A stretch of 64,000 nt of DNA, taken from the NCBI GenBank assembly GCA_046726415.1, contig JBKPAK010000189.1, positions 1,154 through 65,153 on the forward strand, in the 5' to 3' direction. The notes under the pieces are model-generated. The model did not search any database and had not been told where the DNA came from. It was given only the letters and a program-made list of their open reading frames with translations. Within the stretch, counting starts at the first letter, position 1. Each line of letters starts with the position of its first letter. The stretch is from Candidatus Methylomirabilota bacterium. GTDB taxonomy: Bacteria > Methylomirabilota > Methylomirabilia > Rokubacteriales > CSP1-6. A program made the position numbers and the translations under genes. Below, piece after piece: positions 10,371 through 30,529 of the stretch.

Positions 10371-11177
10371 CCGGCGCGCCGGACACTCCCCTCGGTGTTT
10401 GGTCTCACCGATGCGGTGCGGCGTGTGGCTGTCGCAGGCCTCCGGGCGCAGCTACGCCGCGACAACGCCGGGGGCAAGGTCGCGTTCTGCGCGGGCCCTC
10501 GACGCAGTCCTGTGGCCCCTTCCCGGCGACCCAGGTCTTTGGCCTTCAACGGCAGGGCATTCGGTCACTTCAGCCTCCGTCCCGGACTGGTGTCTGGCCG
10601 CCGCGTCGGTTCTCGACGCGCGCCGATGCCCATCAGCGCCCATCATCTCCAGCGGGGCAGGCTGGGTTCTGGAACCGAAGATCCTCGGAGCTTTCTCTTG
10701 GTGCCTTCGCTCTTGCCCTGTGGCACCTGACGAGGCGTTAGCCGTGTCCCGGTTTGAGCGGGGAGTGGCTGTCCTGTCCGTTCTGGCGATGCAGGCCTCC
10801 TCTGAGTCAACGAGGGTCCGACGCCGATCTCCAAGCTGCTGCCGTCGGCGATCGAGGCCATCGATGAGCCGCGGCGTCAGGAACACGAATCTCATCCGCT
10901 TGCGGGCCATCGATCCTGTTGTCCGCCGCCGCGACCACAACCCTTTCGCTCGCTCGCGCACCAACGAGGCGGACTTGAATAGTGGGCGCGAGAGTGGGCC
11001 GGCTGAGTGGCTTCTTGGAGGCGGGGGTGGCTCTACAAGCGAGATCGAGGTTGGGCTCAACCTCGATCGGGCGCAGACGCGTCAGGTGTGGACACTCAAC
11101 GCCTTCGTCTTCAACGTGCACGATGCGGGCGGCGTCGGTGTGGCCGCGCCGCTCATCGAATCCTAGGGCGCCGCGCG

Positions 11178-12632: not shown

Positions 12633-12699
12633 CGATGCGCCCGGACCGCCACTCCTCCCCCCGCGATGGCCACATCGGGCCGGGACGAGAGGAGCCACA

Positions 12700-13671: not shown

Positions 13672-14287
13672 CTCCACGGGCGGGGCACAGGCAGGTTCAA
13701 CTGACGCAGTGCAGAGGGAGCGATCACCATATCGAACGGTGCGCTCAGGATTGCGACGACCTTGTCCAGGTGGTCGAGGTGGGCCGAGAGCTGTCTGATG
13801 AGGAACGCGTGATGCGCGCGGAAGCGTCCGGCCAGGGCCTGTCGGGGAAGTCGTCGGCATTGTTGCCCAACGTCCCACAGGCCAGCCCGCCCCCGCACGG
13901 CGGGCCCGGCGGTTCCCGCGACTAGGTCTCCAACATGGCGCGGCCGCCCGTGGAGGGCCCGCCAAACGAATGGACGCCTCGCCCCGGCGCGGGATAGCTT
14001 TTGGGCGATGGCATGCTCGTGGGGACCGACCCCTGCCGTGCGGCAACGGGATCCGGGGGGGCAGAAGGCCAATCGGGGGCGAAACTGCGCCGCAGGCAGG
14101 CGCGGAAGGAATAGTCCGCTATGCCGCCCAAGTCTGAGGGGCTGGTGCGTTGGGCTTGCCACGCTGATCCCACGGGACGAGTACGGCCTGATGCCCTCCT
14201 GAGGCTGATGAGGAGCCGAGGACTGGACCTCGGCCACGGGCGAGTGCACGGGCCTCCTGTTGCACTGGGCATTCATGGCCGCACGCC

Positions 14288-15052
14288 ATGATTTCGGGGC
14301 GAAAGGTGACGGTCGTGATGCCCGCGTACAACGCCGAGGCGACGCTCCAGAAGACCGTCCTCGAGATTCCGAGGAACGTCGTCGACGACATCATCGTCGT
14401 GGACGACCAGTCGCGTGACCGCACCGTCGACGAGGCGCGGCGGCTCAAGCTCCACACGATCATCCACCCGAAGAACCGCGGCTACGGGGGGAACCAGAAA
14501 ACCTGCTACGCGGAGGCGCTTCGGCGCGGGGCGGAGATCATCGTCATGGTGCATCCCGACTACCAATACACCCCGCGGCTCATCCCAGTGCTGGCCGCCT
14601 GCATCGGAAGCGGTCTCTACGACGTGGCCCTCGGATCGCGCATCCTCGGCGGGCAGGCGGTCGCCGGAGGCATGCCGCGTTACAAGTACGTCAGCAACCG
14701 CTTCCTGACCGCGGCGGAAAACCTTCTCGTTGGTGCGAAGCTCTCCGAGTACCACACCGGCTACCGGGCGTTCTCCCGACGGGTCCTGGAGGAGGTACCG
14801 CTCGAGGAGAATGATGACGACTTCGTGTTCGACAACCAGATGCTCTTGCAGGCCATCTGGTTCGGCTTCGCCATCGCCGAAGTGACCTGCCCCGCGCGCT
14901 ACACTGAAGAGTCCTCGTCCGTCACGTTCCGGCGCAGCGTCGTCTACGGCGTCGGCGTGTTGCGGGCGGCGGTGCTGTTCCGGTTGGCGCGGCTGGGCCT
15001 TGCTCGACCACGGTTCCTGGCACGCAACGGCCGAAGGCTCGCGTTGAGTTGA
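14288..15052 (+). CDS. GT2 polyprenyl-phosphate sugar synthase-like glycosyltransferase (Dpm1/ArnC/GtrB-like).
   Basis: KVTVVMPAYNAEATL...VVDDQSRDRT...HPKNRGYGGNQKTCY matches Dpm1/ArnC-type GT2 enzymes. Confidence 0.8.
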   Translation: MISGRKVTVVMPAYNAEATLQKTVLEIPRNVVDDIIVVDDQSRDRTVDEARRLKLHTIIHPKNRGYGGNQKTCYAEALRRGAEIIVMVHPDYQYTPRLIPVLAACIGSGLYDVALGSRILGGQAVAGGMPRYKYVSNRFLTAAENLLVGAKLSEYHTGYRAFSRRVLEEVPLEENDDDFVFDNQMLLQAIWFGFAIAEVTCPARYTEESSSVTFRRSVVYGVGVLRAAVLFRLARLGLARPRFLARNGRRLALS

Positions 15053-15249
15053 CCCGCTGCTCGGTGTGCGGCGGCGCACTCGCGCCAGGGCTCGCCGGGG
15101 TGCGCGATCGTGAGACCGGCGAGACCTTCGATGCGGCCCCCTCTGGCATAGCCTCGAGCATGAGCCGGAACCCCCTCACGCGCATGATCTCGGAGACGGC
15201 GCATCGCGCACATCAGCTCCGCCGATCGCCCGCGCTGCGCCCTGAAGCG

Positions 15250-16848
15250 TTACTCGAGCTCCCAGAGCTCGAGGCGCTCGAGCACCTCGCCTCCCCACGC
15301 CCACGGGAGCAGGCCCCAATAGTTCGAGTAGAAGCCGGCCCCGAGCGCGAAGCTCATGATGCGCCCGCCGGGGCGCGCGTCCTCGATGCGCGCGAGCAGC
15401 CTGCGCTGTGGGAAGCGCCCGATTCCGTCGCCTAAGCTGCGCAGGCTCGAGACCGCGAGGTCGCCGCGCTCCGGATACGGTGGCGTCGAAGTGAGCGGAC
15501 GCGCCCCGGCTCGCTCCGCGTACCACTGGAAGCCCCAGTGGCCAGCGAACCATACGCGCCGGCCCGCGGCCACGTGGGGCGTGATCCATTCCGCGGCGGC
15601 GCGCCGCCCGAGCTCCGCGAAGGAGGCGTCGGCGTGCAGGATCGCCACGCCTAGCGCGACGCCCGCCGCCACGGTTGCGCCGACGAGCACGCGCGAGAAG
15701 GCGCGTGACCGAAGGGCGACCGATCGGCCGATCAGAATCGCCGCGGCGGGCGCCGAGGCGAGCAGATATTTCGAGGGCATGTGAGGATACGGCGTGACCG
15801 CGAGAGGAAGCAGCAGCCACAACCCGAGCACGAGCTGCACCGCATCGCGGCGGCGGAAACCGTCGGCGAACACGTCCCACAGCGCGCTCGCGGTGAGGGC
15901 GATCACGGGCACGAGCCAGAGGAAGCGGCCGTCGCTCGCAGGGAAGAGCACCAGTGCTAGGCCGAGGGCAGCGACGCAGAGGAGCGGCTGTCGCACGAGC
16001 GCGCGCCAGCGGAGCGCCGCCCACGGGAGCGAAAACGGCAGCACGAGCGTCCAGTGCACGCCAAAGGCCGCGACGTTCGACGCGAGGTTCTTGAGCGAGC
16101 TGAAGGTCTGCGCCGCGCCCAGCCACGCGCTCGGCGCGCCCTCGGGATCGCGGGTCAGCAGCGTCAGCCCGACCACCGCCGCCGGCGCGAGCGCGATCGG
16201 GAGGAACGCCATGAGCCGCGTCTTGCGCCAGCTCGCGCGCGCGAGGAAGTCCCGGGGTAGCGCCAGCGCCGCAATGGCGAGCAACAGCAGGAGATGCGGG
16301 CGCGCAAGCGCAGCCAACGCAAGCGCCGCGGTCGCGACCAGGCATTGGTGCCCGTGCTGGTCGTCGCGCCAGGCGAGCACGCGCTCCAGTCCGAGCGCGC
16401 CGAACGCCATCGCCGGGATGTCCGGCATGGCAGTACCGGCCATAGCTAGCGCGGCGGGGGTCGCGGCGAGCAGGAGCGCCGCCGCGCGCGCCGCATCGGG
16501 CGATCCTCCGAGGCGCAAGGCGAGGGCCGCGGTCGCGGCGATCGCCAGCGCCAAGAGCAGGAGCTGTTCGAGATGCGCGATCCACTCGTGTCCACCGGAC
16601 GCGACCGACGGCACGAGCAGGTACGCCATCCCCGGCCCGCTCGGCATGATGGCCGACATGCGGCGCGGCTCGGTCGACTCCGACCACACCATCTCGAAAG
16701 CCGTTGGGTGCACCGGATCGTTGAGCAGCTGCTCCGCCTGCCGCAGAAACATTGTGTCGTCGATCGTGAAGGCCTTGTCGAGGAACGGGACGAGGACCAC
16801 GGTCGCGAGGAGCAGCGCCGGCGCGGCGCAGCGAAGCGCGCTCAGCAT
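15250..16848 (-). CDS. GT-C fold membrane glycosyltransferase, ArnT/PMT_2 (GT39/GT83)-like.
   Basis: Polytopic membrane protein. Start at M79 of track ORF 15250..17082 (MLSALRCAAPALLLATVVLVPFLDKAFTIDDTMFLRQAEQL). The other long ORFs over this region are Arg-rich wrong frames. Confidence 0.65.
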   Translation of the reverse strand: MLSALRCAAPALLLATVVLVPFLDKAFTIDDTMFLRQAEQLLNDPVHPTAFEMVWSESTEPRRMSAIMPSGPGMAYLLVPSVASGGHEWIAHLEQLLLLALAIAATAALALRLGGSPDAARAAALLLAATPAALAMAGTAMPDIPAMAFGALGLERVLAWRDDQHGHQCLVATAALALAALARPHLLLLLAIAALALPRDFLARASWRKTRLMAFLPIALAPAAVVGLTLLTRDPEGAPSAWLGAAQTFSSLKNLASNVAAFGVHWTLVLPFSLPWAALRWRALVRQPLLCVAALGLALVLFPASDGRFLWLVPVIALTASALWDVFADGFRRRDAVQLVLGLWLLLPLAVTPYPHMPSKYLLASAPAAAILIGRSVALRSRAFSRVLVGATVAAGVALGVAILHADASFAELGRRAAAEWITPHVAAGRRVWFAGHWGFQWYAERAGARPLTSTPPYPERGDLAVSSLRSLGDGIGRFPQRRLLARIEDARPGGRIMSFALGAGFYSNYWGLLPWAWGGEVLERLELWELE

Positions 16849-17289
16849 CGGGCCACCACACCTCGCCCGCGCCTCGCGCGCGGGGCCAGCCGCAGCCTGA
16901 CCTCGCTCAGCCCGCAGGGCAACGTCTCGGGGAGGTCGCCGCACGCTGCTCACCTTGCGACGCGCGGCGCGGCCCGCCGTGACTGGGATCGCGATGGCGA
17001 CGGCGGCGGACACGCTGAGCAACGAGGCCGTAATTGGCTCAAGCAGGGATTGTCGGCTCCACATCTGCATGGCGTCAACCATCTGGCGGCCGTGTCTCCC
17101 GGGGTTGGGACGGCGTTGGACACTGAGCGTCCGTGCGGCACTGCCGACCGCCGACCAGGCGACGTTCGACCGGCTTCTGCGGCCGCGGCGGCGCGGGCGC
17201 CAGCCCCGCCCGCTCGCCGCCTCGTCGCCGGCCTGTGCACCCAGGTGCCCGTCCGCACCCAGGGCGGGTGGACCGGCGTCCCCCAGGGG

Positions 17290-18000
17290 CGGTACAGAGT
17301 GGTCTTGTCTTGCATTGCGGCGAGGCCACCGCGGAGTATAACCTCACGACCTTCGTCGTAGTGGACGTGGCCTCGATGTGGACCGAGCTGCTGGCGATCC
17401 GGGGCCGGCCCTATCACTGCGTGAGCGATGGGATGGAGTATGCCCGCCGGCCCTTCCCGTTCGCGATCCGCGAATGGCGCCATAACGGCGGCGAGTCCTC
17501 AACGAACTCTTGATCGGCGGGTGTCGCCGGCAGCAGGGATCCGTCCTTCTTCCGGGCGCTGGGCTCGTCGGTCGTCCTTGCCCCCAGCACCGCCCAGGTC
17601 GACGGTCCCGACAATGGCCGAGGAATCGACTTCACTTCCCTGAGAGGTTGCGAGGAGCTGATCACCGGTCAGGCCGGAAAATTCTGGTTCGACCGACCCA
17701 ACCGCGAGCGCGCCGTGATCGTGTTCGAGCATCGAATCGAGTCCCCAGAGACGATCCTCCCGACCGTTCGCTCCGGGGCCTTCAATTCTGGCCGCAAGCG
17801 GCTCCTCGAGAGTAGCCCTAGATGCCCTGCGGGACCGTCGATCCCGGCATCTCCACTTGTCCAAGAGGCGCTAGCCACGAGGGACGACCGGTGCGGGCGT
17901 TTGTCCCAATTTTTGCCCCTGGCCGAAGGAATCGTACGATACGGGGCGAGATGGATGGCGTCAATCATACTGGAAGCGCCGGCGGCGTGGAGCGTGACCC
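17290..18000 (+). pseudogene. Decayed fragment of a YfhO-like paralogue (C-terminal third), with frameshifts and an internal deletion.
   Basis: FRALGSSVVLAPSTAQVDGPDNGRGIDFTSLRGCEELITGQAGKFWFDR...RAVIVFEHRIESPETILPTVRSGAFN aligns with residues of gene 18569..21001 (FRVLGLSAVLVPNTAQVYGLDDARGIDFTSLRRYEEMITGHAGNFWFYR...RALIVFEHRVESPETILQTVRSGGFD). Further similarity (VDPGIS, NFCPWPKESY versus NYFPGWKAYV) continues in shifted frames. Confidence 0.55.
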
Positions 18001-18329
18001 GTCGGTGGCGCAGGCGTGTGAGCCGCAACGCTGCCCGCGATCACAGATCCGGCACGGACGGGCGTCGCACCCTGCGACGCGCACTCGCGGGCGACGCCTC
18101 AGGCTCGCCGCGGAGGCGTTCCCGGGTTGACGTTCGCCATCAAGCTTGTCCTCCTTCCGCTCGCGCTGCTGCCGGTCCTCGCGCGCCGCCGCCGCGGCCT
18201 TCGGCGCTCGCGATCTCGTCTGCTGGCAACTCTGCGTTGACGCTCGGCCTTGCCCTGCTGCCGATCGGTCTGGCGCGAACGATCCGCGAACCGCGAACGG
18301 GGCGCGTCGCTCGAAGCCTGGTCGCCCAC

Positions 18330-18500
18330 CGCGCCAGCATGATCGTCTCGGGCCGTGGTGACATCCTCGCCGAGGCGAGCGCTACCGCCGAGGACATGGT
18401 GGTCGCCGACGTCGATCTCGCCGTGCTTTCCGGGCTCCGGGAGCTCTGGGCTACCACGGTCACCGAGGGCCGGACCCGCGCCGGCCCGGTGGCCGACGCC
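18330..18500 (+). pseudogene. Isolated C-terminal fragment of a carbon-nitrogen hydrolase (nitrilase superfamily) gene.
   Basis: HRASMIVSGRGDILAEASATAEDMVVADVDLAVLSGLRE matches the conserved CN-hydrolase C-terminus (GHSMIVxPxGxVLAEA...EGVLVADIDL...R). No N-terminal catalytic region is present in any frame upstream. Confidence 0.4.
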
Positions 18501-18568
18501 TCGGCCTGCGCGCTCCATCCCAAGGCATCGTCGGCGCGGCCGGTGGAGCGGTCTCCGCACGCGATGTC

Positions 18569-21001
18569 GTGAGTGTCTGCCGTGAGCCGGGGGCGGGCTC
18601 GGTAGTGGCGAGGCCGAAGACGCGTCGTTCCGCGCCGCCTGACGACGTCGCTCTGGCCGCGAGGGATCGGATCTTCGCCGGCTCCACGGCGGCAACCGTC
18701 ACTGGGGTGGCGGTGCTCGCGGTGGTGCTCGCCGTCTTGCTTCGCGAATCGCTGTTTCTCGGCAGGGGACTGGTCCCGGCCGACGGAGTTCTTCGTTTCC
18801 CGCCATGGGCCCCTACCTGGCGGGTGGCGCCATCCAACTATCTGCTGGCCGACCAGTACGAGGTTTTTGTCCCGCTGCGGCAGTTCTTTCACGACGAGAT
18901 CCTGAAGGGACGCCTCCCGCTCTGGAACCCGCACCTGGGAAGCGGAATGCCGAGCCTGGCGTCGATGCAGGGGGCGGCGCTCTATCCCCTCAATTTGCTG
19001 CTGTCGCCGATCGACCCGTTCGTGGCCAGTGGCGTCGCCGCCTTCATCAAACTCCTGCTCGCGGGGACGTTCACGATGATGTACATGCGCTGCCTCGGTG
19101 TGGTGCCTGGGGCCGCGCTCTTCGCCGGGCTCGTCTACGCGCTGTCGGGATTCATGATCGTCTGGCTCGGCCATCCGCACGTGAACGGCGCCATCCTGCT
19201 TCCTCTCTTGCTGTATCTGATCGAGCGACAGTTCAATGAGCGCCTGGGATTGCGTTGCTGGATCGGCGTCGCGATCGTCTTCGGCGTCATTCTCCTCGGC
19301 GGCCATCCGCCCACGGTCGTGCACATCACCATGGCGGCGGTGGCCTATTTCGTGTTTCGGTGGGCGGAGCCCTGCAGGGAACGACGGGTGACGCGAATGC
19401 TCATGCTCGCCGGTGCCCTGACCGCGGGCGTGCTCGTGGCGGCGGCGCAGGTGCTTCCGTACCTCGAGTACTACCGCGAGAGCTCGAGCGCAGTGTCATC
19501 CGCTGCTCTAGACCGAGCGGGCAGTCGTCTCGCACCGCACACGCTGATTCACTTCTTCCTGCCGTTTCTGTCCGGAAGCCCGGCGGCCGGCTTCGAGCAT
19601 GTGCCGGCCGCCCTCGGACTTTGGTCGCCATCACCGAACAATAACTTCAACGAGCGGACGGCGTACGTGGGGGTGCTCGCCCTTTTTCTGGCCTTCGTCG
19701 GCGCCATTCGGCGGCGCTGCCGGGTCGGCCTCTTCCACGCCGGTCTGGCGCTTGTCTGCCTCCTCATCATCTACGGTGTCCCGCCCTGGCCGACCGTCAT
19801 GCGCGCCCTGCCCGGGTTGAAGGACGTGAACCATCAGCGCCTGCTGCTCGTCGTCGACTGGAGCCTGGCCGTGCTCGCCGGGCTCGGCCTGGACACGCTG
19901 GCTCGCGCGCGCGCGCGGACGCAGTGGCGAGCGCTGGCCATCGCGTTCACCGCCGCCGTGATCCTCGGGCTCGCGGCACTCTGGAGTGTGATCGGCTCCC
20001 CATTCGCGAGGCTCGACGGGCCGGCGCGTTCATTCCTCATGGGGCAGATGGGGGTCCTGGGGGCCGGGCTGCTCGTCACCATACTCGCGACGCTCGGGCG
20101 GCTGCCGGGGCGCTGGGTCCAGGCCATCTGCGTGGGATGGGCGGCGATGGACCTTCTGTGGTTCGCGACTGGATACAACCCGGCGATTTCCCGGGAGCGC
20201 TACTATCCCCCCACCGAGTCCATCCGCTTCCTTCAGAGCGATCCATCCACCTTCCGGGTGCTGGGCCTGTCGGCCGTGCTTGTGCCCAACACGGCCCAGG
20301 TCTACGGCCTCGACGATGCACGGGGCATCGACTTCACTTCCCTGAGACGTTACGAGGAGATGATCACCGGTCACGCGGGAAACTTCTGGTTCTACCGGCT
20401 CGCCGACCGCCTGCCCCCGCCGCTCGATCTGCTGAACGTGAAGTACGTGCTGGTGCCCCAGCGTCCCACCGTCCCCGAGGGGTTCGAGCTCGTGTACGAC
20501 AAGGAGATCGCCATCCTCCGATACCGACACCATCGGGAGCGTGCGTTGATCGTGTTCGAGCATCGAGTCGAGTCGCCAGAGACCATCCTGCAGACCGTGC
20601 GCTCGGGCGGCTTCGATCCGGAGCGGATGCTGCTCCTCGAAGAGAAACCGGAGTTGCCCCCCGGGGCCGTCGACCCCGGCATCTCCGCCGCACAGGTCCG
20701 GATCGCGAAGTATGAGCCCGACGAGGTCACGGTCGAGGCAGTCACGCCGCGCCCAGGGTTCCTCTTGCTCCTGGACAACTACTTTCCGGGGTGGAAGGCG
20801 TACGTGGCCGAGCGCGAGGTGCCTCTCTATCGCGCCGACTTCACCTTTCGCGCGGTCGCGTTGCCGGCTGGGCGGTGGACGGTGAGGTTCGTGTACCGGC
20901 CCGTGAGCTTCCGCGCCGGGGCCGCGATATCGCTGACGGTCGTCGTGGCGCTCACAGTCCTGTGGTTCGGCGAACGCCGTCTATGCGTGAACGAACCTTG
21001 A
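18569..21001 (+). CDS. YfhO-like GT-C fold polytopic membrane protein (putative glycosyl/polymer transferase).
   Basis: 810 aa. The N-terminal roughly 450 aa are multi-TM, followed by a large extracytoplasmic C-domain and a terminal TM helix (AAISLTVVVALTVLWF). This architecture matches the YfhO family. Confidence 0.65.
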   Translation: MSVCREPGAGSVVARPKTRRSAPPDDVALAARDRIFAGSTAATVTGVAVLAVVLAVLLRESLFLGRGLVPADGVLRFPPWAPTWRVAPSNYLLADQYEVFVPLRQFFHDEILKGRLPLWNPHLGSGMPSLASMQGAALYPLNLLLSPIDPFVASGVAAFIKLLLAGTFTMMYMRCLGVVPGAALFAGLVYALSGFMIVWLGHPHVNGAILLPLLLYLIERQFNERLGLRCWIGVAIVFGVILLGGHPPTVVHITMAAVAYFVFRWAEPCRERRVTRMLMLAGALTAGVLVAAAQVLPYLEYYRESSSAVSSAALDRAGSRLAPHTLIHFFLPFLSGSPAAGFEHVPAALGLWSPSPNNNFNERTAYVGVLALFLAFVGAIRRRCRVGLFHAGLALVCLLIIYGVPPWPTVMRALPGLKDVNHQRLLLVVDWSLAVLAGLGLDTLARARARTQWRALAIAFTAAVILGLAALWSVIGSPFARLDGPARSFLMGQMGVLGAGLLVTILATLGRLPGRWVQAICVGWAAMDLLWFATGYNPAISRERYYPPTESIRFLQSDPSTFRVLGLSAVLVPNTAQVYGLDDARGIDFTSLRRYEEMITGHAGNFWFYRLADRLPPPLDLLNVKYVLVPQRPTVPEGFELVYDKEIAILRYRHHRERALIVFEHRVESPETILQTVRSGGFDPERMLLLEEKPELPPGAVDPGISAAQVRIAKYEPDEVTVEAVTPRPGFLLLLDNYFPGWKAYVAEREVPLYRADFTFRAVALPAGRWTVRFVYRPVSFRAGAAISLTVVVALTVLWFGERRLCVNEP

Positions 21002-21153
21002 GTAGCCGGCTCGCCATTCGGCACCGGCGGGGCGATGACGGCCCTGACAGGCTGTGAAATCTCCGTGTCCCGGTGCCTCGGTGGTGAAGGTGTTCTTGTC
21101 ACATCAGCATTCGTAGAGCGGTTCGGCGTTTCTCGTGGCCCTCGACATCGAAG

Positions 21154-21915
21154 TCATCGCAAATCGGTCGCGAGCTCAGCGCCGGATCTCCCGGGCGCGG
21201 CGAAGATGTGCAACTTTGGATAAATTGCGAACGGCATCTTGAGCCAGCGGATCGACATGAACACGGGATACCACGCCCAGTAGTTGAACCCCTCGGGGTC
21301 GATCCGGCGCGCCTCGCACGACCCGAAGCGCGCCCGCAGCATGCGCTCGTAGAACCCCCGAGTGTACATCACGACCAGGGGCTGATTGAATGCCTTCAGG
21401 AATCCCCGGGTGAGCGGTAGCAGACCTCGCTGCAGCGGGTACCAAGCCGGGTGTGGGCAGTACTCCAGAATGAACACCCTCCCCGGCGGGCGCAGCCAGC
21501 GCTGGGCCCGCGCCATCGCCTCGTCGATGCGCGCCTCAGACGACCGCCAGCTTCCCTGCGGCGTGTGATGCAGCATCAGCGGAAAGACGACCGAATCGAA
21601 GCTCCCCGGGTGGAACTCGCACGTGTAGAGGTCACCGATGATGCCACGTGCGCGCGGCGGGCAGTACACCTTGAGCATCTCCGGCGACAGGTCGAGGACG
21701 GTGAGGTTACGCAGATGGTCACCCCACGCGAAGAAGTCCCAGATCCCGCCGATCGCCAGGGCATCACCGCGCACCTCGGTGTTCAGGTAATCGGCGGCGA
21801 CGAGGTCGAGCTTACCCGTCATGCGCTTCAGCGCCTCGTAGTGATTCGTCGCCTGCTGTCGGTCGAAGAACTCACGAAGTTTTTGATGCGATGGGGACTG
21901 CCGCGCTTGTGTCAT
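21154..21915 (-). CDS. Class I SAM-dependent methyltransferase (Methyltransf_11-like).
   Basis: VLDLSPEMLK...DSVVFPLMLHH motifs. Its start overlaps the stop of the upstream gene (ATGA). Confidence 0.6.
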   Translation of the reverse strand: MTQARQSPSHQKLREFFDRQQATNHYEALKRMTGKLDLVAADYLNTEVRGDALAIGGIWDFFAWGDHLRNLTVLDLSPEMLKVYCPPRARGIIGDLYTCEFHPGSFDSVVFPLMLHHTPQGSWRSSEARIDEAMARAQRWLRPPGRVFILEYCPHPAWYPLQRGLLPLTRGFLKAFNQPLVVMYTRGFYERMLRARFGSCEARRIDPEGFNYWAWYPVFMSIRWLKMPFAIYPKLHIFAAPGRSGAELATDLR

Positions 21916-22802
21916 GGGTTGCCTTCTACGTCTTCACGGTCCTTCCGTCGGCCGAGACGCTTGAGCAGGTCGCTGGCGAAGCGGTCGCTGAGGCCAAACC
22001 TGCGCTTCACTTTGTCGTAGCCGCGCAGAGCCATCTTATCGAGATAGATCCACACGGCCCGCGCCCCATCGCCCGGGCGCGCGCGATACTCCGTCGAGCG
22101 CACCATGAACGGCTGCGGCTCGTCGGTGAAGTAGTAGAGCGCCAGTGACTTGCGCGTGAACGAGGTGGGACAGATCATCGGGTCCGGATGCCCGTGAAAC
22201 GAGTCAGGATCGGTGCGGAAGATGACGGCTCGGTTGAACACCGGCGCGATGCGCTGAACGCAGCGCTTGATCTGCCGATCCCAGAGTTCCAGCTGGCCGC
22301 CGTACGACTCCTGCCAGTCGCGGTTCAAGTACACCAGGAGATTGACACGGCGGCGCCAGCGCGCGTGGTGCGGGTGCCCGGTGAAGTCGGCGTGTATGTT
22401 CAGGTAGCCGCCATTTCCCGACTGGTGCAGCCCGCCGCCCATCAGCGCCTCGTCGGCGATCAGTGCTTCGATGCCGGTGAGCTGCTCGACAAAGCGCACG
22501 AAGCGCGTCGAGTTGAGCTCGTCGATGGTGGCGCGGAGAGCGGGCCTGAAGGAGCCGCGGTCGGACTTCCCGTACTTGCGCTCGTTGACGTGCGTGTAGT
22601 GGATCCACTCGCTCGAATCGAGGGGGGGGAACTCGCGCAGGCACAGATCCGCGGCCGCGGGGCTCAGGAAGTCGTCGATGACGAGGTGGGGGTACGGGTC
22701 GGCCTCACGAAAGCGTCGGGCCAGCTCTTCCAGCTGAGCCGTCCAGCGCGCATACGGCAGAATCCCACCCTCCGAATGGCGTTCGACGGCGCCGCTCTCC
22801 AT
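21912..22802 (-). CDS. 2OG-Fe(II) oxygenase superfamily protein (prolyl-4-hydroxylase-like).
   Basis: HADFTGHPHH...RRVNLLVYLN...FHGHP, the HxD...H facial-triad pattern of 2OG oxygenases. Confidence 0.7.
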   Translation of the reverse strand: MESGAVERHSEGGILPYARWTAQLEELARRFREADPYPHLVIDDFLSPAAADLCLREFPPLDSSEWIHYTHVNERKYGKSDRGSFRPALRATIDELNSTRFVRFVEQLTGIEALIADEALMGGGLHQSGNGGYLNIHADFTGHPHHARWRRRVNLLVYLNRDWQESYGGQLELWDRQIKRCVQRIAPVFNRAVIFRTDPDSFHGHPDPMICPTSFTRKSLALYYFTDEPQPFMVRSTEYRARPGDGARAVWIYLDKMALRGYDKVKRRFGLSDRFASDLLKRLGRRKDREDVEGNP

Positions 22803-23261
22803 GTTGTCGCCCCTTCGAAGCTCTATTCAGACCACCTTCTTCTGTACGCGCCATTGAGGAGCTCTGCGGTGGATGCTTGCCCCTCACGGATCCCTTCTGT
22901 CGCTTCTGCCTCGCGGCGGACAACCCTCGCACCGCGCCGATCCCGTAGGCGAGCATCTGCGTCACCGGGCGCACCGTCCTGGACGCGCTCCTCCACGCCC
23001 GTGGTTCCCGTGACGGGGCACTGTCCCGAGAACGTCGGCGAGTACCGGTTCTTCGTCCCCGCCTGATCAATCGATGCCGTCGCCGCCGAACGCCTTCGTC
23101 TCCCCCTCTGTCCAGCCCCCCACGACCAACTCGTGAATGGGGCCGTCGCGGAGCGGAGGGAGCGAGCGCACCAGGGCGAACCACCTAGAGGCCTGGTGGG
23201 CGGTCGGCGACGGCGGTGACCGAGCGTTCGCGAAGGCGTCACGCCCCGGGTGGAAGATGCC

Positions 23262-24422
23262 TCATCGCGGGCCCGTGAATTCCGACGGCACCCGGTTCGG
23301 TTTCCCAGCTCGGGCGAGCACCGTCTTGTACACGTGGACATGCTCGGTGCAGATCTGGCGAAGCGCGGCGTCCTCATCGCGGCGCGAGGACGCGCCTCGG
23401 CGCAGGAGCGCGGGAAGCAAGTCGACGATATTCGTGGCCGTGAAGCGTTCCTCCGCGACGAAGTGCACGTCGGGATAGCGGCCGGTGACCGAGTCGGGCG
23501 TGTTGGCGCCCATGGTGGTGATCAGGGGAGTGCCGTGAGCGACCACCACGTGGAACGTCGTATTGCGCATGGCGACGCCACCCGCGAACGGAAGAACGCA
23601 GGCATCGGCAGTCTGGAGGTACCTCGAAACGCGGTCCGCGGAGAGAAAGCCCGTCCACCGCACGCGATCGGCGATGCCGCGCTCGATGGCCAGTCGAATG
23701 AGCGACTGAAGGTAGCGCTCGCCCTCGGCGGCGGCATACTCGGCCACTCCGCCAATCATGAGCAGAACGGCCACACGCTTTCGTCGCCCGAGCTCGGCGA
23801 GCACGTCGAGCAGAATCTCGAGCCGATGGACGGGCTTGATGAGCCCGAAGAAGGCGAGCACGGGGGTCGACTCGTCGACGCCCAGCTCTCGCCGCACGGC
23901 GGCGACGTCGGCCGGCGTGACGGGAATGCTGGTCGTCTGGCGGACGACGGTGACGCGATCCTTGAGGAAGGGAACGGCGCGCCGGAGCCGCGCCCCTTCG
24001 ACTTCATCGGGGGTGATCACGTGGTTAGCCAAGCTGGCCAGAAGCATCGAGGCGAACCGCCCCAGGCCCCGGCGGGCTGACCACTCGTGGATCGTCACCA
24101 CCGTCGGTACGCCGAGGGTGAGACGCGCGACGAGCGGCAGAAAGAGGATCGCCAGCGAGCGGCCATACCCGGCGGCGGGATATTGGATGTGGAGGAGATC
24201 GGCGCGGACGGCGCGCAGCAGCCTGGGGAGCTGAAGAACGCGCCAGTTGGGGAGCAGCGGCAGCACGCCGCCCTCGTCCCGCGCGTCAACCTCGGGGTGG
24301 CGCGTGGTGATCACGCGAACCCGCAGGCCCTGAGCGCGCAGGCCCGCCGCGAGCGTTGCCGTGTGATCGCCCACCCCACAGGGGATCGGCGGATAGGAGC
24401 CGCAAACAACGCAGACCGTCAT
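23262..24422 (-). CDS. Glycosyltransferase family 4.
   Basis: GT-B fold, MTVCVVCGSYPPIPCGVGDH..., EGFGLP-like motif region. Confidence 0.8.
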   Translation of the reverse strand: MTVCVVCGSYPPIPCGVGDHTATLAAGLRAQGLRVRVITTRHPEVDARDEGGVLPLLPNWRVLQLPRLLRAVRADLLHIQYPAAGYGRSLAILFLPLVARLTLGVPTVVTIHEWSARRGLGRFASMLLASLANHVITPDEVEGARLRRAVPFLKDRVTVVRQTTSIPVTPADVAAVRRELGVDESTPVLAFFGLIKPVHRLEILLDVLAELGRRKRVAVLLMIGGVAEYAAAEGERYLQSLIRLAIERGIADRVRWTGFLSADRVSRYLQTADACVLPFAGGVAMRNTTFHVVVAHGTPLITTMGANTPDSVTGRYPDVHFVAEERFTATNIVDLLPALLRRGASSRRDEDAALRQICTEHVHVYKTVLARAGKPNRVPSEFTGPR

Positions 24423-24864
24423 CGTCTTTCGGCTCTGTCACTGGCGATGGCGTTCGCCGGGGCCGCTCGGTGGGCGTTCGGTGGGTAGCCGTCGTCGGTC
24501 AACAAATCGATGCTAGCACAGCATTTGCCGGGCGCCGGCCCGCGTCGAGGAGTGCCGAGGGCAGGCCCGACTGTACGTCGCATTCCCTCTCCTTCACGTT
24601 CCGGGTTGTGAGAATTGAGCCGGGGCGGGTCGCGCTCTGAGCTCGACGTTCGGAGGTGTCTGGCCAGCCACGTCGAGCAGCGGGAGACGTCGATGACGAC
24701 GTGGGCGCGCTTGGTTCGGCGTGGCGGACTAGGCTAAGGGCTCGACGGGCCGCTGTCCAGCTGCCCGTGAAACGTCATCCGGTTGGTCCGGTGCCTGCTC
24801 CAGAACAGATGGCCCACTTGAAGGTGTAGGCGCACGCTTTCGCGACGCGAAACGGCAAGGGTCG

Positions 24865-25641
24865 CTAACCGGCGACAACTCGACCCGGGACAGCTCCGTT
24901 GACGGCCATGTAGATCCGATCGTCGTTGAATGGATCCACGTGCACCTCCGGTCGATCGAAGCCGCCCTGGGTGGTAGTGCAGTCGGTCGATCGGAACACG
25001 TACTCCACGCCACGACTAGTCGAGCCAGGACTGGTGCAGGGAAGGCCGAGCGTGGCGTGATCGTCGTCCCGCCTAACCCCCTGATGAATCAAGAGCAGGT
25101 CACCCCCGGGCAGACGCAGTAACTGGGAGTCGTTTGAGCCCTGCGGTCCACAACTCCCGCCACAGCCTTGTTCCGTCGTCGCAGTCGAGAACCCCTGCCG
25201 CGGTGACGAGTGGCCACTGACTCGAGCCGTAGACGACATCGCTCGTCGGGGAGCAGTGCGATCTATCTCCCTCGAAGCACGCCATACTCGATCGCCAGAT
25301 TCGTGGAGTCGAGTCAACGGAAAATAGAATCGCACCCTTCGGGCCACAATGGCCTCTGTGCGGCGGCACGGCGAGCGCAACGTGCTCCCAAGTCGGAATG
25401 GCCACGAGCTTGTCGTTTACTGTGTTCACGAAATGGGTGGGAGGTCGGAAAAAAAGGAAAGGGGAGAGTGACAATGTATCACACCCAGACAGGATGATGA
25501 GCGTCGCGGGCACGATTACCCCGAACCGCAGAGAGGCTGCGCTGCCGAGCCATCATCGTCTGCTGCGAGGACGTGAGGAGGGTACATCCCAGAACCCACC
25601 AGAGCGACCGTCAAGAGCAGAAGCCACATCGGGGTTCGCAT
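24865..25641 (-). pseudogene. Probable frameshifted remnant of a secreted BNR/Asp-box-like protein. Signal peptide in one frame, body in two others.
   Basis: MRTPMWLLLLTVALVGSGMYPP (signal peptide, then a stop after 41 aa). Protein-like text continues in two other frames (DVVYGSSQWPL; VFRSTDCTTTQGGF...VHVDPFNDDRIYMAVNG). A low-GC patch with an A-run lies here. Confidence 0.3.
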
Positions 25642-25699
25642 TGTCATCTCCTCGGCCACCCTTTCCCTACCTCGTCAGAGGAAGACATTCGCGCCCCCG

Positions 25700-26781
25700 G
25701 CGACCACGGCGCGCGGCGCACGGAGTGGCAGGACGGGTGAAAGCCGCTGCCTCAAATTTGCGTAGGTGGCGGCGTCCCTCCCCGTCCACGTTCGAGCGCG
25801 TCTACGCGCTACGCAACGACTATCCCTTCGCCTCGGTCAATATGAGCATCGGCGGTGGACGCTTCTTCTCAACTGCGACTCGGATGCTCGAAAGGTGGCG
25901 ATTGACAACCTCAAGTCCGTTGGGATCGCCACCGTCATCTCCTCGGGCAACGACGGCTTCACCGATTCCATGAGTGCCCCCGCATGTATCTCAACCGCCT
26001 GAGCGTGGGCTCCACGCAGGATGGTTCCTTAGGCACGACGACGGACGCCATTTCGAGCTTCTCTAACAGCGCGTCCTTTCTCTCGCTGCTCGCTCCGGGC
26101 CAGCCGATCAACTCCCCGATCCCTGGCAACGCCTTTGCGAACTTCCAGGGAACCTCCATGGCGGCTCCCCACGTGGCGGGCGCCTGGGCCATGCTCAAGC
26201 AGACGACGCCGTCGGCGACGGTGCCGGAGATCCTCAGGGCGCTTCAGACGACCGGGCTGCCGATCACCGACCCACGCAACGGCATCACCACGTCTCGCAT
26301 CGAGATCTTCGACGCGTTACCGGCAATCGGCCCTCCGCCCGACGGGTACAAAACCTACACCGTCGCGCCGTGCCGGCTCGTCGACACCGGTCTCGCGGGC
26401 GGCCCCATCGCCGCCCACGGCTTTCGAGCGTTCTTGGCCGCCGGAGCGCTCAGCGGGCAGGGCGGAGCATCTGACTGCCTCGTCCCACTGGGGCCCAGCA
26501 AGGCCGTGCACATCAATGTGGTAGCGGTGAACCCAAGCGGCCCTGGCCACCTCACCATCCATCCGTACCCGACGCCACTTCCCCTCGCGAGCACCCTCAA
26601 TTTCTCAACGGGCGAGACCATCGCGAACGGCGTCTTGATCCCAATCTGCGATTCAAGCGTCACGTCGTGCTCGTATGATTTCACGGTAACCATGGGACCC
26701 ACGGCCGCTCACGTGGTCATCGATGTGACCGGTTACCTGGCCCCCACCGCCGTGATAGGGAGAGAAGCCCCGACTCATTGA
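25700..26781 (+). pseudogene. Subtilisin-like (S8) serine peptidase, N-terminally truncated and broken by at least two frameshifts, ending in a 4-Cys C-terminal module.
   Basis: Three track frames each carry consecutive S8 motifs. DHGARRTEWQDG* is the His-motif relic with a stop. YALRNDYPFASVNMSIGGG in frame 25398; VGIATVISSGNDGFTD in frame 25766; GTSMAAPHVAGAWAMLKQ (catalytic Ser) in frame 25984. No Asp-motif region is present upstream. Confidence 0.65.
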
Positions 26782-26805
26782 CCGCCGGCACAGGAGGGGA
26801 ACGAG

Positions 26806-27311
26806 GTGACGATGACCCAGCGGTGTGTTGGCGCGCTACTTTCAGTATCCGTCTTGGTTGGCGCGTTCTGCGCCGGGGCGACGCCCACCCGGGCGGGCGG
26901 GCCCTACGATACGCTTACCGTCCCACCCTGTCGGATTGTCGACACCCGGATCGTCGGCGGCCCATTCCCCCCTCCGGCTCCAGGAGCTTCCAGGTCGCCG
27001 GAACCTTTCCGAGTCAGGGGGGACAGACGAACTGTGGAGTGCCCTTGGGACCAGCCAAAGGCGTGTTCATCAACGTTGTGGCAGTGGGACCTAGCGGACT
27101 GGGCCATCTCACCGTCCACCCTTGGCCGTCGTCCCTGCCGTTGGCCAGCACATTGAATTTCTCTGCCGGCCAAACGATCGCCAACGGCGTCCTCGTGCCG
27201 ATCTGCGACACCGACACCGTCTCCTGCTCATTCGATTTCACGGTTACCATGGGCCCGGCATCGGCGCACATCGTGATCGATGTCACCGGCTATCTCCAGC
27301 CGACTCCGTGA
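26806..27311 (+). CDS. Small secreted protein made of the same 4-Cys module. It has a 1-nt frameshift in a C-run at about 26970 (pseudogene or sequencing error).
   Basis: Signal peptide [25 protein letters not shown]...[20 protein letters not shown] (frame 26806). It continues as ...[46 protein letters not shown]...[36 protein letters not shown] (frame 26778). The two frames rejoin if one C is removed from the cccccc run. Confidence 0.55.
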
Positions 27312-27387
27312 TATCGGCTTTGCACCGCTGCCTCGGGGAGGATCGGGTAGCTCAGCCATTCGGCCCTTGGCGGACGCTCATCGCAGC

Positions 27388-28503
27388 TCAGCGTGTCGCG
27401 ACAGCGCGGTACACCGCCAGCGTGCGACGGGCGGTCTCCTCCCAGGAGTACTGGCGGCTCCGCACCAGGCCGCGCCGGGCCAGTTCATCCGCGAGGGCGC
27501 GATCGAGAAGGACCCGCCCCATCGCGGCCGCCAGCGCCTCGACGTCTTCGGGGTCGACCAGCAGACCCGCATCGCCGACGAGCTCTGGTATGGAAGCTCG
27601 CGTCGAGGCGATCACCGGAGTACCGCACGCCATCGCCTCGAGGATCGGAAGCCCGAACCCCTCGAAGAGCGAAGGATACACGAAGGCGGCCGCGGCGCTG
27701 TAGAAGGCCGGAAGATCCTCCTCAGGCAGGAGACCAACCCACCGTACCCTGCGGTCCTGGCTTGGCTGACCCGTCTGCTTGAGCATCTGCTCGGCTCCGA
27801 AGTCGGGCTTGCCAGCAACGACCACCTGGGGGTCCGCAGTGCCGCTCGTCCTGAGGAGGACGGCTGCGCGGATGAGTCGACCGAGATTCTTCCTCCGATT
27901 CAGCCGGCCGAGCGCGAAGACGAAGCCGGGCTGGAGGCCGTAACGCGAGAGCACCTTGACCGCGTCGTTGACCGGGCAGGGCCGAAGGCTTGTCTGCGCG
28001 GCCAGTGGGATCGCCGTGATCCGATCGGAGTCGACGCCGTAGCGGTTCGCGATGTCTCGCCGGGAAAATTCGGAGTCGGTGATGATGTGCGACGCTCGGG
28101 CGAGGCTCTTCGGGACGAGCACGCGCATGGCTACCCGCAGCCCTCGTGGAAAGGCCTCTGGTACGTGGAGGAAGCCGAGGTCGTGAATGGTGACGACGAG
28201 AGGTCCACCGTAGCCCAGTGGAGTGAAGTACTGCACATGCAAACAGTCGACCCTGGCGCGAGCAGCGGCCCGGCCGAGAGCGAAGGCGAGGCGGGCAACA
28301 CCGGCACCCTGCGTGACGCGCACCGTCTGAAGCGGGCGCCGACCATCGAGGGCACCATAGAAACGGTGCGCGGGATCCGCCGCGAAGAGGGTGAGGTCGT
28401 CCTTGCCGTTGCCGTTGAGGAGTGCCGAGATCAGGCCCCGACAGTACGTCGCATTCCCCTCACCTTCACGTTCCGCGCTATGAGAATCGATCCCGACATT
28501 CAT
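27388..28503 (-). CDS. Glycosyltransferase family 4.
   Basis: GT-B fold: N-terminal MNVGIDSHS...[12 protein letters not shown], and a C-terminal [20 protein letters not shown] motif. Confidence 0.8.
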
Positions 28504-28841
28504 CGGGCGGCCCGGCGAGCCGATCCAAGATGACGAGAGCCCGCGAGCCTCTTTTGGGCGAGGTCCCCTCTATCTTGCCAAAGTACTGACGGGGATACTC
28601 TCATCCTTTTCCGTTCCGTCACTCACAGTATGGTCGTTCCTCGCCGTTTCTCGATGGGCGAACCGGGCCGCGCCACCAAACGCTGGTATCGACGCGAGTG
28701 TCAACATGACCAGGCGGCGGTTGCTGATCTCGCGTCGCGCCCCGCGACGTTCGACGTTCCGAGGTGTCCGGCCAGCCCCATCGAGCAACCAACAGAACGA
28801 TGATGCAATGTGTGGTACTGGAGCACGGACCCGCCTAAATT

Positions 28842-30529
28842 CTACGGGGCCGCAGTATAACCGGTGACGTCGATGACCACGTGGCTGGCACTGGGGCCCG
28901 CCTGGAGGACGAGGTCGGACATGCACGTGCTCCCCGCCGCCTCATCACAAATCGGCAGTAGGATCCCGTTCGCGACGTTCTGGCCCGGCGTGAAGTTGAT
29001 CGTGCTCGCCAGCGGTGGTGACCAGCCGAACGGAAATACCGTGAGATGGCCGAACATCGTCGGGCCGACCGCCACGACGTTCACGTGTACCCCCGTGGCC
29101 GTGGTGGGCACGCCGCACGTGCTAGCGGCGCCCTGGTTGAGCCCCGAGCCGGTTACGCGAACGTTGCGGCAAGCGTTCCCGGCCAGGACTCCGCCGCCCC
29201 CTGGATTGCGCGTGTCGAGCACACGGCAGGGTGGCACCGTAAAGGTCTTGTTGGCCCCCGGCTGGAGGCCAATGTAGCGAATCTTGCGGAAGCTCCCGGC
29301 ACCACCCGTCCCAGGCGACTGCGACAGGTAGTAGAGCGCCCCGTCGGGGCCCACCGCCATGTCTGCCACGCCGTCGGCGAGATCGGTCGCCCAGAACTCC
29401 GGGGTCGCTCCTGGAATCTTTTCCCAGATCCCGGTCACGCAGTTGAAGCGGAGCGCGTATAGGAAGCGGCGATAGTAGTCGGCGGCGAGTGAACGCCCTG
29501 GTAGTTAGGCGGGAAAAGCTCGACCCCTGCTCCGGCCGGCGCCTTGTACACCGGGCCGCCGATGATGGCATCGGCGGTCCCTCCAGCATTCACATATTCG
29601 AGGATCGGGGCAACGAGGTTAAGCGGATCCGGCTCCCCGCCATTGCAATCGGCGAACGGCAGGGTGCCCTCGAAGTAAGGCCAGCCGAAGTTGTCGCCGC
29701 CGGTCGGTGTCCCCCGGCTGGCTTCCTCACGCTGCGCATTGCCGACATCCCCGACGAACACGGCTCCGGTAAGCGGATCGATCGAGAACCGGAAAGGATT
29801 GCGCAGCCCGTACGCCCACACGAGCCTTGCGTTCACGTTCGCGCTGCCGGCGAAGGGGTTGCCGGCCGGAACCATCGTGGCCAGATCGAGCGGCGTGATC
29901 GAGTCGTCCACCTTAACCCTGAGGATCTTCCCCTTGAGTTGGGCCAGATCCTGCGCGGCGCAGGCGTCTGCGTCGTCCCCGATGCTGATGTACAGCATGT
30001 TATCGAGGCTGGAGCGGATCGTGCCGCCGTTGTGATTGCCCGCGACATCCGGGATCTGGTTGATCAAGAGCTGCTTCGATGTGGGGCTGATCGTGAGGTT
30101 CGTCGAGTTCGGATCGCCGAGATTGCCGGCCAGGGCATAGCGGGCCAGATGCGAGTTCTCGCTCCCGTTGTCGGAATATAGGACGTAGACGAACGGCCGC
30201 GCCGGGAAATCCGGATCCACCGCGATGCCGAGAAGCCCGCGCTCACCGTTGAACTCCACTTCGGGCATGGCGAGCAGCGCGTCCGCGACCAGGGTGCCGT
30301 TGACGACAAGGCGGATCTCTCCTGACTGCTGAATGATCAAGACGCGACCATCGGGGAGAAAGGCGAAGCCGACTGGCCAGGCGAGCCCGTTCGGCCCGCC
30401 AGGGACAACCGCGGCCTCCTCGAAGTTCGGGGGCAGCTCGATGGCCGCCGCGCGCGACGCGATGGTCGCGATCATGACGGCCATGATGAGCTTCAGCGCC
30501 ACCTTCGAAACAACGGATGGGCGTACCAC
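28842..30529 (-). CDS. Secreted PQQ-dependent sugar dehydrogenase (soluble aldose dehydrogenase, beta-propeller) fused to a C-terminal 4-Cys module. It is interrupted by a frameshift at about 29470.
   Basis: Track ORF 29435..30529 has a signal peptide plus GLLGIAVDPDFPARPFVYVLYS...GWPYFEG (sugar-dehydrogenase family). It ends just where the adjacent frame (track ORF 28842..29438) continues as SLAADYYRRFLYALRFNCVTGIWEK...TFTVPPCRVLDTR...PICDEAAGSTC...HVVIDVTGY. Confidence 0.7.

Follow-up and report, generated by a model that had tools for sequence, protein, structure and literature searches.

The window, a stretch of 64,000 nucleotides from a Candidatus Methylomirabilota bacterium, contains three repeats of a secreted module, and the evidence supports well the view that they are paralogues within a large family of extracellular beta-jelly-roll domains of about 125-135 residues that has no name. 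The best overall explanation that we can offer for this family, to which we assign a probability of about one half, is that the jelly-roll self-associates in threes and thereby binds or anchors secreted cargo. The domain is found in tens of thousands of clusters among the exoproteins of soil and sediment bacteria, on peptidases, dehydrogenases, propellers, and adhesin-like arrays, with no Pfam or NCBIfam name and no solved structure. RefSeq labels the proteins that contain it either as hypothetical or by their partner domain, and naming the module would improve the annotation of many such exoproteins in the Actinomycetota, Acidobacteriota, Rokubacteria, and other lineages.

Three module copies in the window

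A six-frame hmmsearch of the window with a module HMM recovered three copies and no more (Table 1). A sequence-only reading of this DNA had described three colinear modules of about 135 residues, and this description is borne out: as proteins, the copies are 67% (1 and 2), 49% (1 and 3), and 53% (2 and 3) identical, and their pairwise alignment scores lie 44-72 standard deviations above shuffled controls. The DNA identity between them is only 61-69%, indicating that they are old paralogues and not the products of a recent duplication. Copy 1 reads GYKTYTVAPCRLVDTG ... VIDVTGYLA and copy 3 reads ANKTFTVPPCRVLDTR ... VIDVTGYTAAP.

The four cysteines proposed to be conserved are present in all three copies, at module positions 10, 45, 102, and 109; copy 3 has a fifth, Cys29. 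The residues that define the family signature (P9, R11, D14, T15, R16, N58, N86, N95, D127, G130, and Y131) are likewise found in every copy, with the exception of R16 in copy 1. The DTR motif was therefore wrongly attributed to all three copies, as copy 1 reads DTG at a position occupied by arginine in 96% of 774 family copies.

Table 1. Module copies and module-bearing genes in the window.
Feature	Position	Strand	Details
S8 peptidase-module pseudogene remnant	25791..26781	+	catalytic C-terminal part and module left
Module copy 1	26344-26745	+	C-terminus of ORF 25984-26781; module HMM E 5.9e-61
Stand-alone module pseudogene	26806..27311	+	signal peptide (30 residues, followed by GGPYD); 1-nt deletion at ~26962
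Module copy 2	26899-27308	+	two frames around the deletion at ~26962
Secreted PQQ-type sugar dehydrogenase (GSDH) with C-terminal module	28842..30529	-	GSDH 3e-41; 1-nt deletion at ~29489
Module copy 3	28845-29255	-	behind the GSDH domain; module HMM E 1e-53

A decayed peptidase pair and a sugar dehydrogenase

Copies 1 and 3 had been assigned to the C-termini of a broken S8 peptidase and a PQQ sugar dehydrogenase, respectively, and both assignments hold: a Pfam search matched Peptidase_S8 to residues 3-90 of ORF 25984-26781, in its N-terminal part, and a GSDH match precedes copy 3. The peptidase gene has lost its N-terminal catalytic half, the region matching 1-585 of the related locus L082, and in a tblastn search the L082 protein falls in three different frames of what is left. 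Single nucleotides are missing at ~25871 and ~25999, and one has been inserted at ~26741. In intact relatives of the window locus, a gene for a 600-aa S8-module protein is followed by a gene for a 168-aa protein.

Copy 2 was taken to be a stand-alone protein with its own signal peptide. The signal peptide, encoded from 26806, is confirmed; the ORF is not intact, since a deletion, placed by alignment to the intact L082 gene, leaves part of it in the frame of 26806 and part in that of 26778. The module HMM matches copy 2 over positions 16-133 (E 2.2e-56) and, in the other frame, over positions 1-23 (E 1e-07). When repaired, the stand-alone protein shares 87-90% identity from end to end with intact proteins of 164-168 aa (P0001 and P0002). 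It is not a lipoprotein, since the cysteine in its signal peptide is not conserved among homologues.

The stand-alone lesion recurs in the related loci L001 and L085-L091, and in ten related contigs frameshifts have made pseudogenes of both the S8 and the stand-alone gene. Because identical lesions appear in contigs from nine other samples, sequencing error is ruled out as their cause. In the source genome, the S8-module/stand-alone pair is thus reduced to pseudogenes.

The gene for the dehydrogenase-module protein, by contrast, is functional in the population. Among the related contigs, which were reached through the neighboring glycosyltransferase, eight encode the protein as an intact chain of 553 aa. 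Aligned to these, the window gene has a single gap, a 1-nt deletion private to the window, and no sequence identical to the broken 364-aa ORF was found by look-up; the frameshift stems from either a private variant or an assembly error. For the window alone, the more modest result is one functional dehydrogenase-module gene beside a decaying S8/stand-alone pair. The locus is situated at the margin of a surface-polysaccharide gene cluster.

A large family without a name

Clustered at 50% identity, the module family comprises 35,482 clusters at E<=1e-3, 26,976 at 1e-10, and 9,848 at 1e-30, with hosts in the Actinomycetota, Acidobacteriota, Gammaproteobacteria, Rokubacteria, Chloroflexi, and others, including both monoderm and diderm phyla. 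Its members share, in order, the motifs P-x-R-x-x-D-T-R, N-(V/L)-T, G-x-L-T-x-x-P, P-x-x-S-x-L-N-F, and A-N-G and a terminal D-(V/I)-x-G-Y. It is well supported that the window copies belong to a Rokubacteria/Methylomirabilia-type subfamily, in which the module is single-copy and is held by a C10-C45 disulfide and a second, short-loop disulfide, C102-C109. These pairings are predicted from covariation among 774 family copies, which backs the earlier guess of two disulfides: C10 and C45 occur together in 364 copies and one without the other in 12, and C102 is paired with C109 in 83 of 86.

The sequence-only reading had proposed a candidate novel domain that could not be assigned to a named family. 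HMM searches of the copies against Pfam, NCBIfam, and PDB matched no established family; a domain with this many clusters is, however, no rare local novelty. At E<=1, neither Pfam (for the module part of any window copy) nor NCBIfam (for the three copies) gave a match, and PDB sequences contained no module match in single-sequence or profile searches. Across 61 diverse family members there is no single Pfam family common to all, and our literature searches turned up no description of the domain.

PPC, the T9SS CTD, PKD, and choice-of-anchor domains, which had been listed for exclusion, are excluded at the HMM level. The Pfam models for PPC (PF04151) and PKD (PF00801 / PF18911) did not match the module part of any copy, nor did the Pfam and NCBIfam models for the T9SS CTD (Por_Secre_tail) match the copies; no NCBIfam choice-of-anchor model matched the three window copies at E<=1. 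Where PKD does occur, in the family proteins P0068 and P0072, it forms a domain of its own that precedes the modules. A T9SS CTD is expected as one copy at the extreme C-terminus in T9SS lineages, whereas the module is found in triplets and sextets, at N-terminal or internal positions, and alone, and its hosts include Actinomycetota, Chloroflexi, and Rokubacteria.

Two further named models were considered and rejected. The CoaZ repeat matches just 2 of 52 relatives and so cannot be the common module. The NCBIfam model NF041519 ("bluetail", for putative surface proteins) has a curated cut-off of 21 bits, and its best score, summed over stretches of ~15 residues, is 20.4 bits; its likeness consists of sub-threshold matches of ~15 residues on the last strand of the module (VDVxGYF) in 4 of 52 triple-copy proteins, with only positions 28 to 42 of the 55-position model aligned, and the window copies are unmatched.

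Predicted fold and structural comparisons

The structural check proposed with the original observation yielded a fold but no significant PDB match. The AlphaFold model of copy 1 (pLDDT 91.6, eight strands) predicts an ordinary jelly-roll beta-sandwich, and Foldseek found no PDB match under E 1e-3. In the predicted structure, the module has the jelly-roll topology of TNF/C1q domains. The TNF/C1q-like trimers, among them C1q, Cbln1, the collagen VIII NC1 domain, the BclA CTD, PRD1 P5, and the N-terminal lectin of Bc2L-C, are built of domains the size of the module, and assemble as homo- or heterotrimers whose ligands are bound at the apex or at interfaces. They have no sequence relationship to the module, whose own trimerization we infer.

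A second structural comparison is with the C-terminal tip of the Bd2133 MAT fibre of Bdellovibrio bacteriovorus (PDB 8OK3 / 8OND), a twisted beta-sandwich of ~120 aa that forms a trimer with ions on its three-fold axis and has been proposed to be adhesive (PMC10769870). Like the module, it is a small beta-sandwich that forms the C-terminal end of a protein secreted or displayed on the surface. The two differ in that they share 9-11% identity with no sequence or profile match, that Bd2133 is carried on a trimeric beta-helix fibre and the module on enzymes, and that the tip, so far as can be judged, appears to lack the PxRxxDTR and DVxGY signature. The similarity could be convergence within a common fold.

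Jelly-roll CBMs (CBM6, CBM16, CBM35, and CBM36) resemble the module as non-catalytic accessory beta-sandwiches on secreted enzymes. The module could accordingly be a monomeric CBM-like unit that aims each enzyme at its polysaccharide substrate, with the stand-alone form acting as a free lectin; the recurrence of PQQ sugar dehydrogenase fusions in two phyla and the surface-polysaccharide cluster bordering the window locus are in keeping with this. Nevertheless, we consider it unlikely, given that the fold matches are weak (TM-scores to CBMs of just 0.28-0.46), that there is no CBM HMM match, and that none of the 71 partner proteins scanned contains a glycoside hydrolase or lyase, the partners being peptidases, propellers, and Ig-like arrays instead. 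A monomeric lectin would also leave unexplained the strong preference for three or six copies and the tight adjacency of stand-alone genes described below.

The least probable of the alternatives is that the module is a stabilizing C-terminal jelly-roll extension with no binding role, as exemplified by the Ca2+-binding beta-jelly-roll of Tk-SP, a Thermococcus subtilisin. The invariant residues D14, N58, N86, N95, and D127 could bind a metal, yet this explanation does not account for stand-alone secreted proteins, triplets, or fusions to non-enzymatic Ig-like arrays.

Copy number and placement in the chain

The architecture of the family points to units of three. Among the top-scoring matches, a sample that favors multi-copy proteins, 88 proteins have one copy, 14 have two, 193 three, 2 four, 4 five, and 15 six, with peaks at three and six. 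Repeats are 57.5% identical within a protein and ~37% identical between proteins, with no positional orthology, which argues that the number three has been re-created or maintained and not merely inherited. The three-copy protein P0095 is predicted as one compact body (pLDDT 94, pTM 0.91), a model whose three-fold packing we deduce from the pTM alone, and single-chain C1q/TNF-type trimers align over about two of its domains.

Surface-anchoring modules offer a functional analogy. SLH and CWB2 modules pack as a pseudo-trimer of three tandem copies, are found at either end of diverse surface proteins, and hold non-covalently to a wall polymer; the SLH fold is helical and the CWB2 fold alpha/beta. 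The module family resembles them in its preference for three copies, its occurrence at either terminus, and its diverse cargo; it differs in having a wholly different fold and no sequence relation to either.

The cargo includes S8, M4, M10, and M12 peptidases, sugar dehydrogenase, beta-propellers, and Ig-like arrays. Such heterogeneity, the many paralogues per genome, and the C-terminal position of the module block in 101 of 147 proteins would fit a sorting or secretion tag for dedicated machinery, akin to the T9SS CTD or a PEP-CTERM-type signal. We regard this possibility, raised in the sequence-only reading, as very unlikely because the module also occurs in triplets, at N-termini, and as stand-alone proteins, in monoderm as well as diderm phyla, with the Actinomycetota, Chloroflexi, and Acidobacteriota all represented. 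In the other 46 of the 147 proteins, the block stands at the N-terminus or inside the chain, the known CTD, PPC, and choice-of-anchor models in Pfam and NCBIfam are all unmatched, and an unsystematic look at the neighborhoods noticed no conserved sortase-like gene. With 130 residues, disulfides, and strong conservation of its core, the module has the look of a stable domain with a function of its own. Binding or anchoring is a plausible role, and modules seem to work in groups of three, giving secreted enzymes a unit for binding or anchoring.

Stand-alone genes and a possible mode of action

In single-copy lineages, stand-alone ORFs are usually neighbors of a large module-bearing ORF, as in the window: 25 of 30 have one on their own strand within 300 nt, and of the five that do not, three sit at contig ends. 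Partnership is further supported by the grouping of stand-alone modules with one another, and not with attached modules, in 27 of 28 cases, and by strong purifying selection on their mature parts among paralogous loci (dN/dS 0.02-0.17 at pS up to 0.29), while their signal peptides diverge. From the occurrence of fused triplets in some proteins and of cargo plus stand-alone genes in others, we propose co-assembly by Rosetta-stone logic, with the module functioning as a (pseudo)trimeric binding or anchoring domain.

The module would have no catalytic role. It would self-associate in threes, as TNF/C1q domains and the Bd2133 fibre tip do, and the trimer would form a multivalent unit that keeps diverse secreted cargo at a polymeric surface, be it the envelope glycan of the cell itself or an external one. 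In mostly monoderm lineages, three modules are fused in one chain. Diderm lineages, that of the window included, have one module per cargo protein, and the other subunits would come from the small secreted stand-alone protein of the adjacent gene, perhaps with a 2:1 stoichiometry, which is pure conjecture. A stand-alone gene adjoins just 28 of the 87 single-module cargo ORFs, so a partner, if needed, would often have to act in trans.

Extended across phyla, this proposal describes a surface-display system based on threes, with fused triplets in monoderms and hetero-trimers of cargo and conserved stand-alone proteins in diderms, that anchors or targets cargo to a surface glycan. We consider the extended form doubtful. 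If it were true, the hetero-trimers would be a bacterial counterpart of C1q/TNF heterotrimers, and peptidases, dehydrogenases, and adhesin-like proteins would be anchored or targeted to surface glycan. The dichotomy between fused triplets and cargo plus stand-alone protein is in any case a concrete testable hypothesis on oligomerization or surface retention.

The stand-alone proteins themselves might instead be the major subunit of a surface polymer or lattice, fibre-like or S-layer-like, into which cargo is built through its own module. The presence of several stand-alone paralogues per genome and the extreme conservation of the mature sequence over several loci of one genome would suit a polymer. 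Against this, the cysteine covariation fits intramolecular pairs and not inter-subunit links, and the fused forms end at three or six copies without open-ended arrays, so that we judge a lattice to be improbable.

A secreted jelly-roll family without a name

The sequence-only reading had described an unassigned secreted module occurring three times, on an S8 peptidase, alone, and on a PQQ sugar dehydrogenase (GSDH). ORF listing, translation and a six-frame scan of the whole 64 kb with a module HMM bear this out, with exactly three copies and no fourth. Pfam recognizes Peptidase_S8 in the N-terminal 90 residues of the ORF that ends in copy 1 (6e-13) and a GSDH domain upstream of copy 3 (3e-41). 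Pairwise protein identities of the copies are 67%, 49% and 53%, with alignment scores 44-72 SD above shuffles; their DNA identity of 61-69% indicates that they are old paralogues.

Module copies and surface-polysaccharide genes in the window
Feature	Position	Strand	Context
Module copy 1	26344-26745	+	C-terminal end of ORF 25984-26781
Module copy 2	26899-27308	+	behind signal peptide starting at 26806
Module copy 3	28845-29255	-	after GSDH / PQQ sugar dehydrogenase domain
Wzx-like flippase	11007-12632		surface-polysaccharide cluster
YfhO-like membrane protein	18569-21001		surface-polysaccharide cluster
Methyltransferase	21154-21915		surface-polysaccharide cluster
2OG-Fe(II) oxygenase	21912-22802		surface-polysaccharide cluster
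GT4 glycosyltransferase	23262-24422		surface-polysaccharide cluster
GT4 glycosyltransferase	27388-28503		surface-polysaccharide cluster

The module is a genuine domain, conserved and secreted, with a jelly-roll fold braced by disulfides. An AlphaFold2 model built on a 54-sequence alignment predicts eight strands in an all-beta domain (pLDDT 91.6, pTM 0.84), a common jelly roll in a family without a close solved relative. The window copies have cysteines at module positions 10, 45, 102 and 109, with an additional fifth in copy 3. Across 774 aligned copies this four-cysteine form is a minority subfamily (80 copies); 280 have only C10 and C45, and 347 have none. C10 and C45 occur together in 364 copies and singly in just 12, and C109 is present in 83 of the 86 copies with C102; this covariation supports the putative pairs C10-C45 and C102-C109, the latter an i, i+7 loop joining strands 6 and 7. 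Relatives without cysteines at 10 and 45 often have a different pair, suggesting that an alternative disulfide evolved independently. In the actinomycetotal proteins P0084 and P0132 this pair is found in 'WPC' after strand 4 and 'G..C' before strand 7; column 75 is cysteine in 6% of copies and column 109 in 17%.

Neither single-sequence nor profile queries matched Pfam (E<=1), NCBIfam (E<=1) or PDB sequences, no one Pfam family is common to 61 diverse members, and no NCBIfam family is common to 52, so the module remains unassigned in these libraries. RefSeq labels members from Streptomyces, Arthrobacter and Curtobacterium 'hypothetical protein' or by the partner domain, and we did not find the module described in the literature. 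The NCBIfam family 'bluetail' was rejected as its identity, the matches being sub-threshold and confined to the last beta-strand motif.

This nameless family is very large: a profile search against 1.84 billion cluster representatives recovered 35,482 proteins at E<=1e-3, 26,976 at 1e-10 and 9,848 at 1e-30. In a genome scan the closest relatives (55-57% identity) belong to Rokubacteria and Methylomirabilia MAGs, consistent with the window's G+C of 67%. More distant members are found in Gammaproteobacteria MAGs, whose genomes encode many paralogues each, in Thermoanaerobaculia, Acidobacteriota and Holophagales, in Ilumatobacteraceae and other Actinomycetota, and in Chloroflexi and Dormibacteria. 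One three-copy protein (L052, 1947-4196) lies on a contig binned as DPANN (Candidatus Micrarchaeaceae archaeon), either by horizontal transfer or as a binning artefact. The wide occurrence and ordinary fold temper the module's novelty.

Modules often occur in threes or beside a stand-alone module gene

Among 318 family proteins, drawn from top-scoring matches and hence favouring multi-copy proteins, 193 have three copies per chain and 88 have one; two, four, five and six copies are found in 14, 2, 4 and 15 proteins, respectively. Repeats inside one protein are 57.5% identical, versus about 37% across proteins, and show no positional orthology (0.36 observed, 0.33 expected), indicating that triplets have been re-created or homogenized yet kept at three. 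The three-copy protein P0095 is modelled as a single compact body (pLDDT 94, pTM 0.91).

In single-copy lineages, including the relatives of the window, 25 of 30 stand-alone genes directly adjoin a large gene ending in one module, and contig ends account for three of the other five. Tight arrays alternating attached and stand-alone genes are frequent, and 27 of 28 stand-alone modules group with each other rather than with attached modules. The mature sequences of stand-alone paralogues within a genome hardly differ (dN/dS 0.02-0.17 at pS up to 0.29), unlike their signal peptides. Paralogues in one Acidobacteriota MAG (L015 7902-8381 versus L016 4518-4991, and L017, L018 and L019) have unrelated signal peptides, and their mature domains differ by 1 nonsynonymous versus 4-19 synonymous changes, reflecting either very strong purifying selection or gene conversion limited to the mature part.

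Because modules are fused in some genomes and encoded by adjacent separate genes in others, Rosetta-stone logic leads us to infer that they would bind one another, preferentially in threes like their best structural neighbours. The resulting assembly would be a non-catalytic binding or anchoring unit serving diverse exoproteins; the SLH and CWB2 triplets are a functional analogue only. Alternatively, though less probably, the module could be a polymer subunit. Of the new findings, the contrast between triplet and cargo-plus-stand-alone organization is the most interesting and lends itself to testing.

The partners are indeed diverse. Three-copy blocks accompany PKD, FN3, RCC1, Kelch, PD40 and PQQ-like propellers, S8, M4 and sedolisin peptidases and one beta-lactamase; single modules accompany Sortilin/BNR-type propellers, M10 and M12 peptidases, CARDB, TIG, PKD and SBBP, as well as GSDH and S8, as in the window. 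The module could instead be a monomeric CBM; no glycoside hydrolase was seen among the scanned partners of either type. Of 147 proteins, 101 have the block at the C-terminus, 37 at the N-terminus and 9 at an internal position. Two further readings, a sorting tag and a stabilizing extension, are unlikely. We favour the self-associating binding or anchoring unit.

Decay of the S8-module and stand-alone genes

Two of the three module host genes in the window are pseudogenes, which the sequence-only reading overlooked. In intact relatives, whose identity to the repaired copy 2 is 87-90%, the S8 peptidase-module protein is 600 aa long, and a 168-aa stand-alone module gene follows 55 nt downstream. 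Compared with the intact contig L082 (88.5% DNA identity), the window is missing the N-terminal half of the S8 gene entirely; the remnant has lost single nucleotides at about 25871 and 25999 and gained one at about 26741, the last being the cause of the odd tail at the C-terminus of copy 1. The stand-alone gene is split between two frames by the loss of one nucleotide at about 26962. A further change in copy 1 is the loss of Arg16, a residue with 96% conservation across the family. Contig L001, from another sample, has the same broken ORFs (99.75% identical, ungapped), and eight more contigs from other samples encode a 264/265-aa S8 ORF and an 88-aa ORF (56-aa in one contig). Such recurrence across samples shows that these are real, population-wide pseudogenes and led us to reject read errors as the source of the lesions.

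Contigs L085-L091 align as two blocks omitting window positions 25482-25533, 52 bp that L001 retains; the pseudogene region thus exists as two or more circulating haplotypes. At 24729-25650 on the minus strand, the signal peptide MTMRTPMWLLLLTVALVGSGMYPPHVLAA precedes coding fragments that lie in at least two frames and end '...RSTDCTTTQGGFDRPEVHVDPFNDDRIYMAVNG'; no fragment matched Pfam, and this looks like another decayed secreted-protein gene. Added to the remnants of the S8 and stand-alone genes, it forms a small graveyard of exoprotein genes flanked by two intact GT4 genes.

The dehydrogenase-module gene and its neighbourhood

In each of the eight further contigs with broken S8 and stand-alone ORFs, the GSDH-module gene is intact and encodes 553 aa. 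Relative to these, the window lacks one base at about 29489, which is either a private variant or an error of assembly. The fusion is recurrent, as MAGs of Thermoanaerobaculia and Acidobacteriota also encode intact examples. The module genes occupy the edge of a gene cluster for surface-polysaccharide biosynthesis (11007-28503), circumstantial evidence compatible with an envelope glycan as candidate ligand.

Elsewhere, the S8/stand-alone locus appears to have rearranged further. In P0060 and P0064, chimeric ORFs from related metagenome contigs, the end of the S8 domain is fused directly to the beginning of the module from the stand-alone gene, followed by out-of-frame sequence. A different strain seems here to have undergone another deletion between the two copies of the module, which would imply decay through recombination of paralogous modules. 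Mobile elements may also contribute: an intact stand-alone module gene on L081 is followed, about 700 nt downstream, by genes for an IS91-family transposase and a phage-type integrase (1200-3223).
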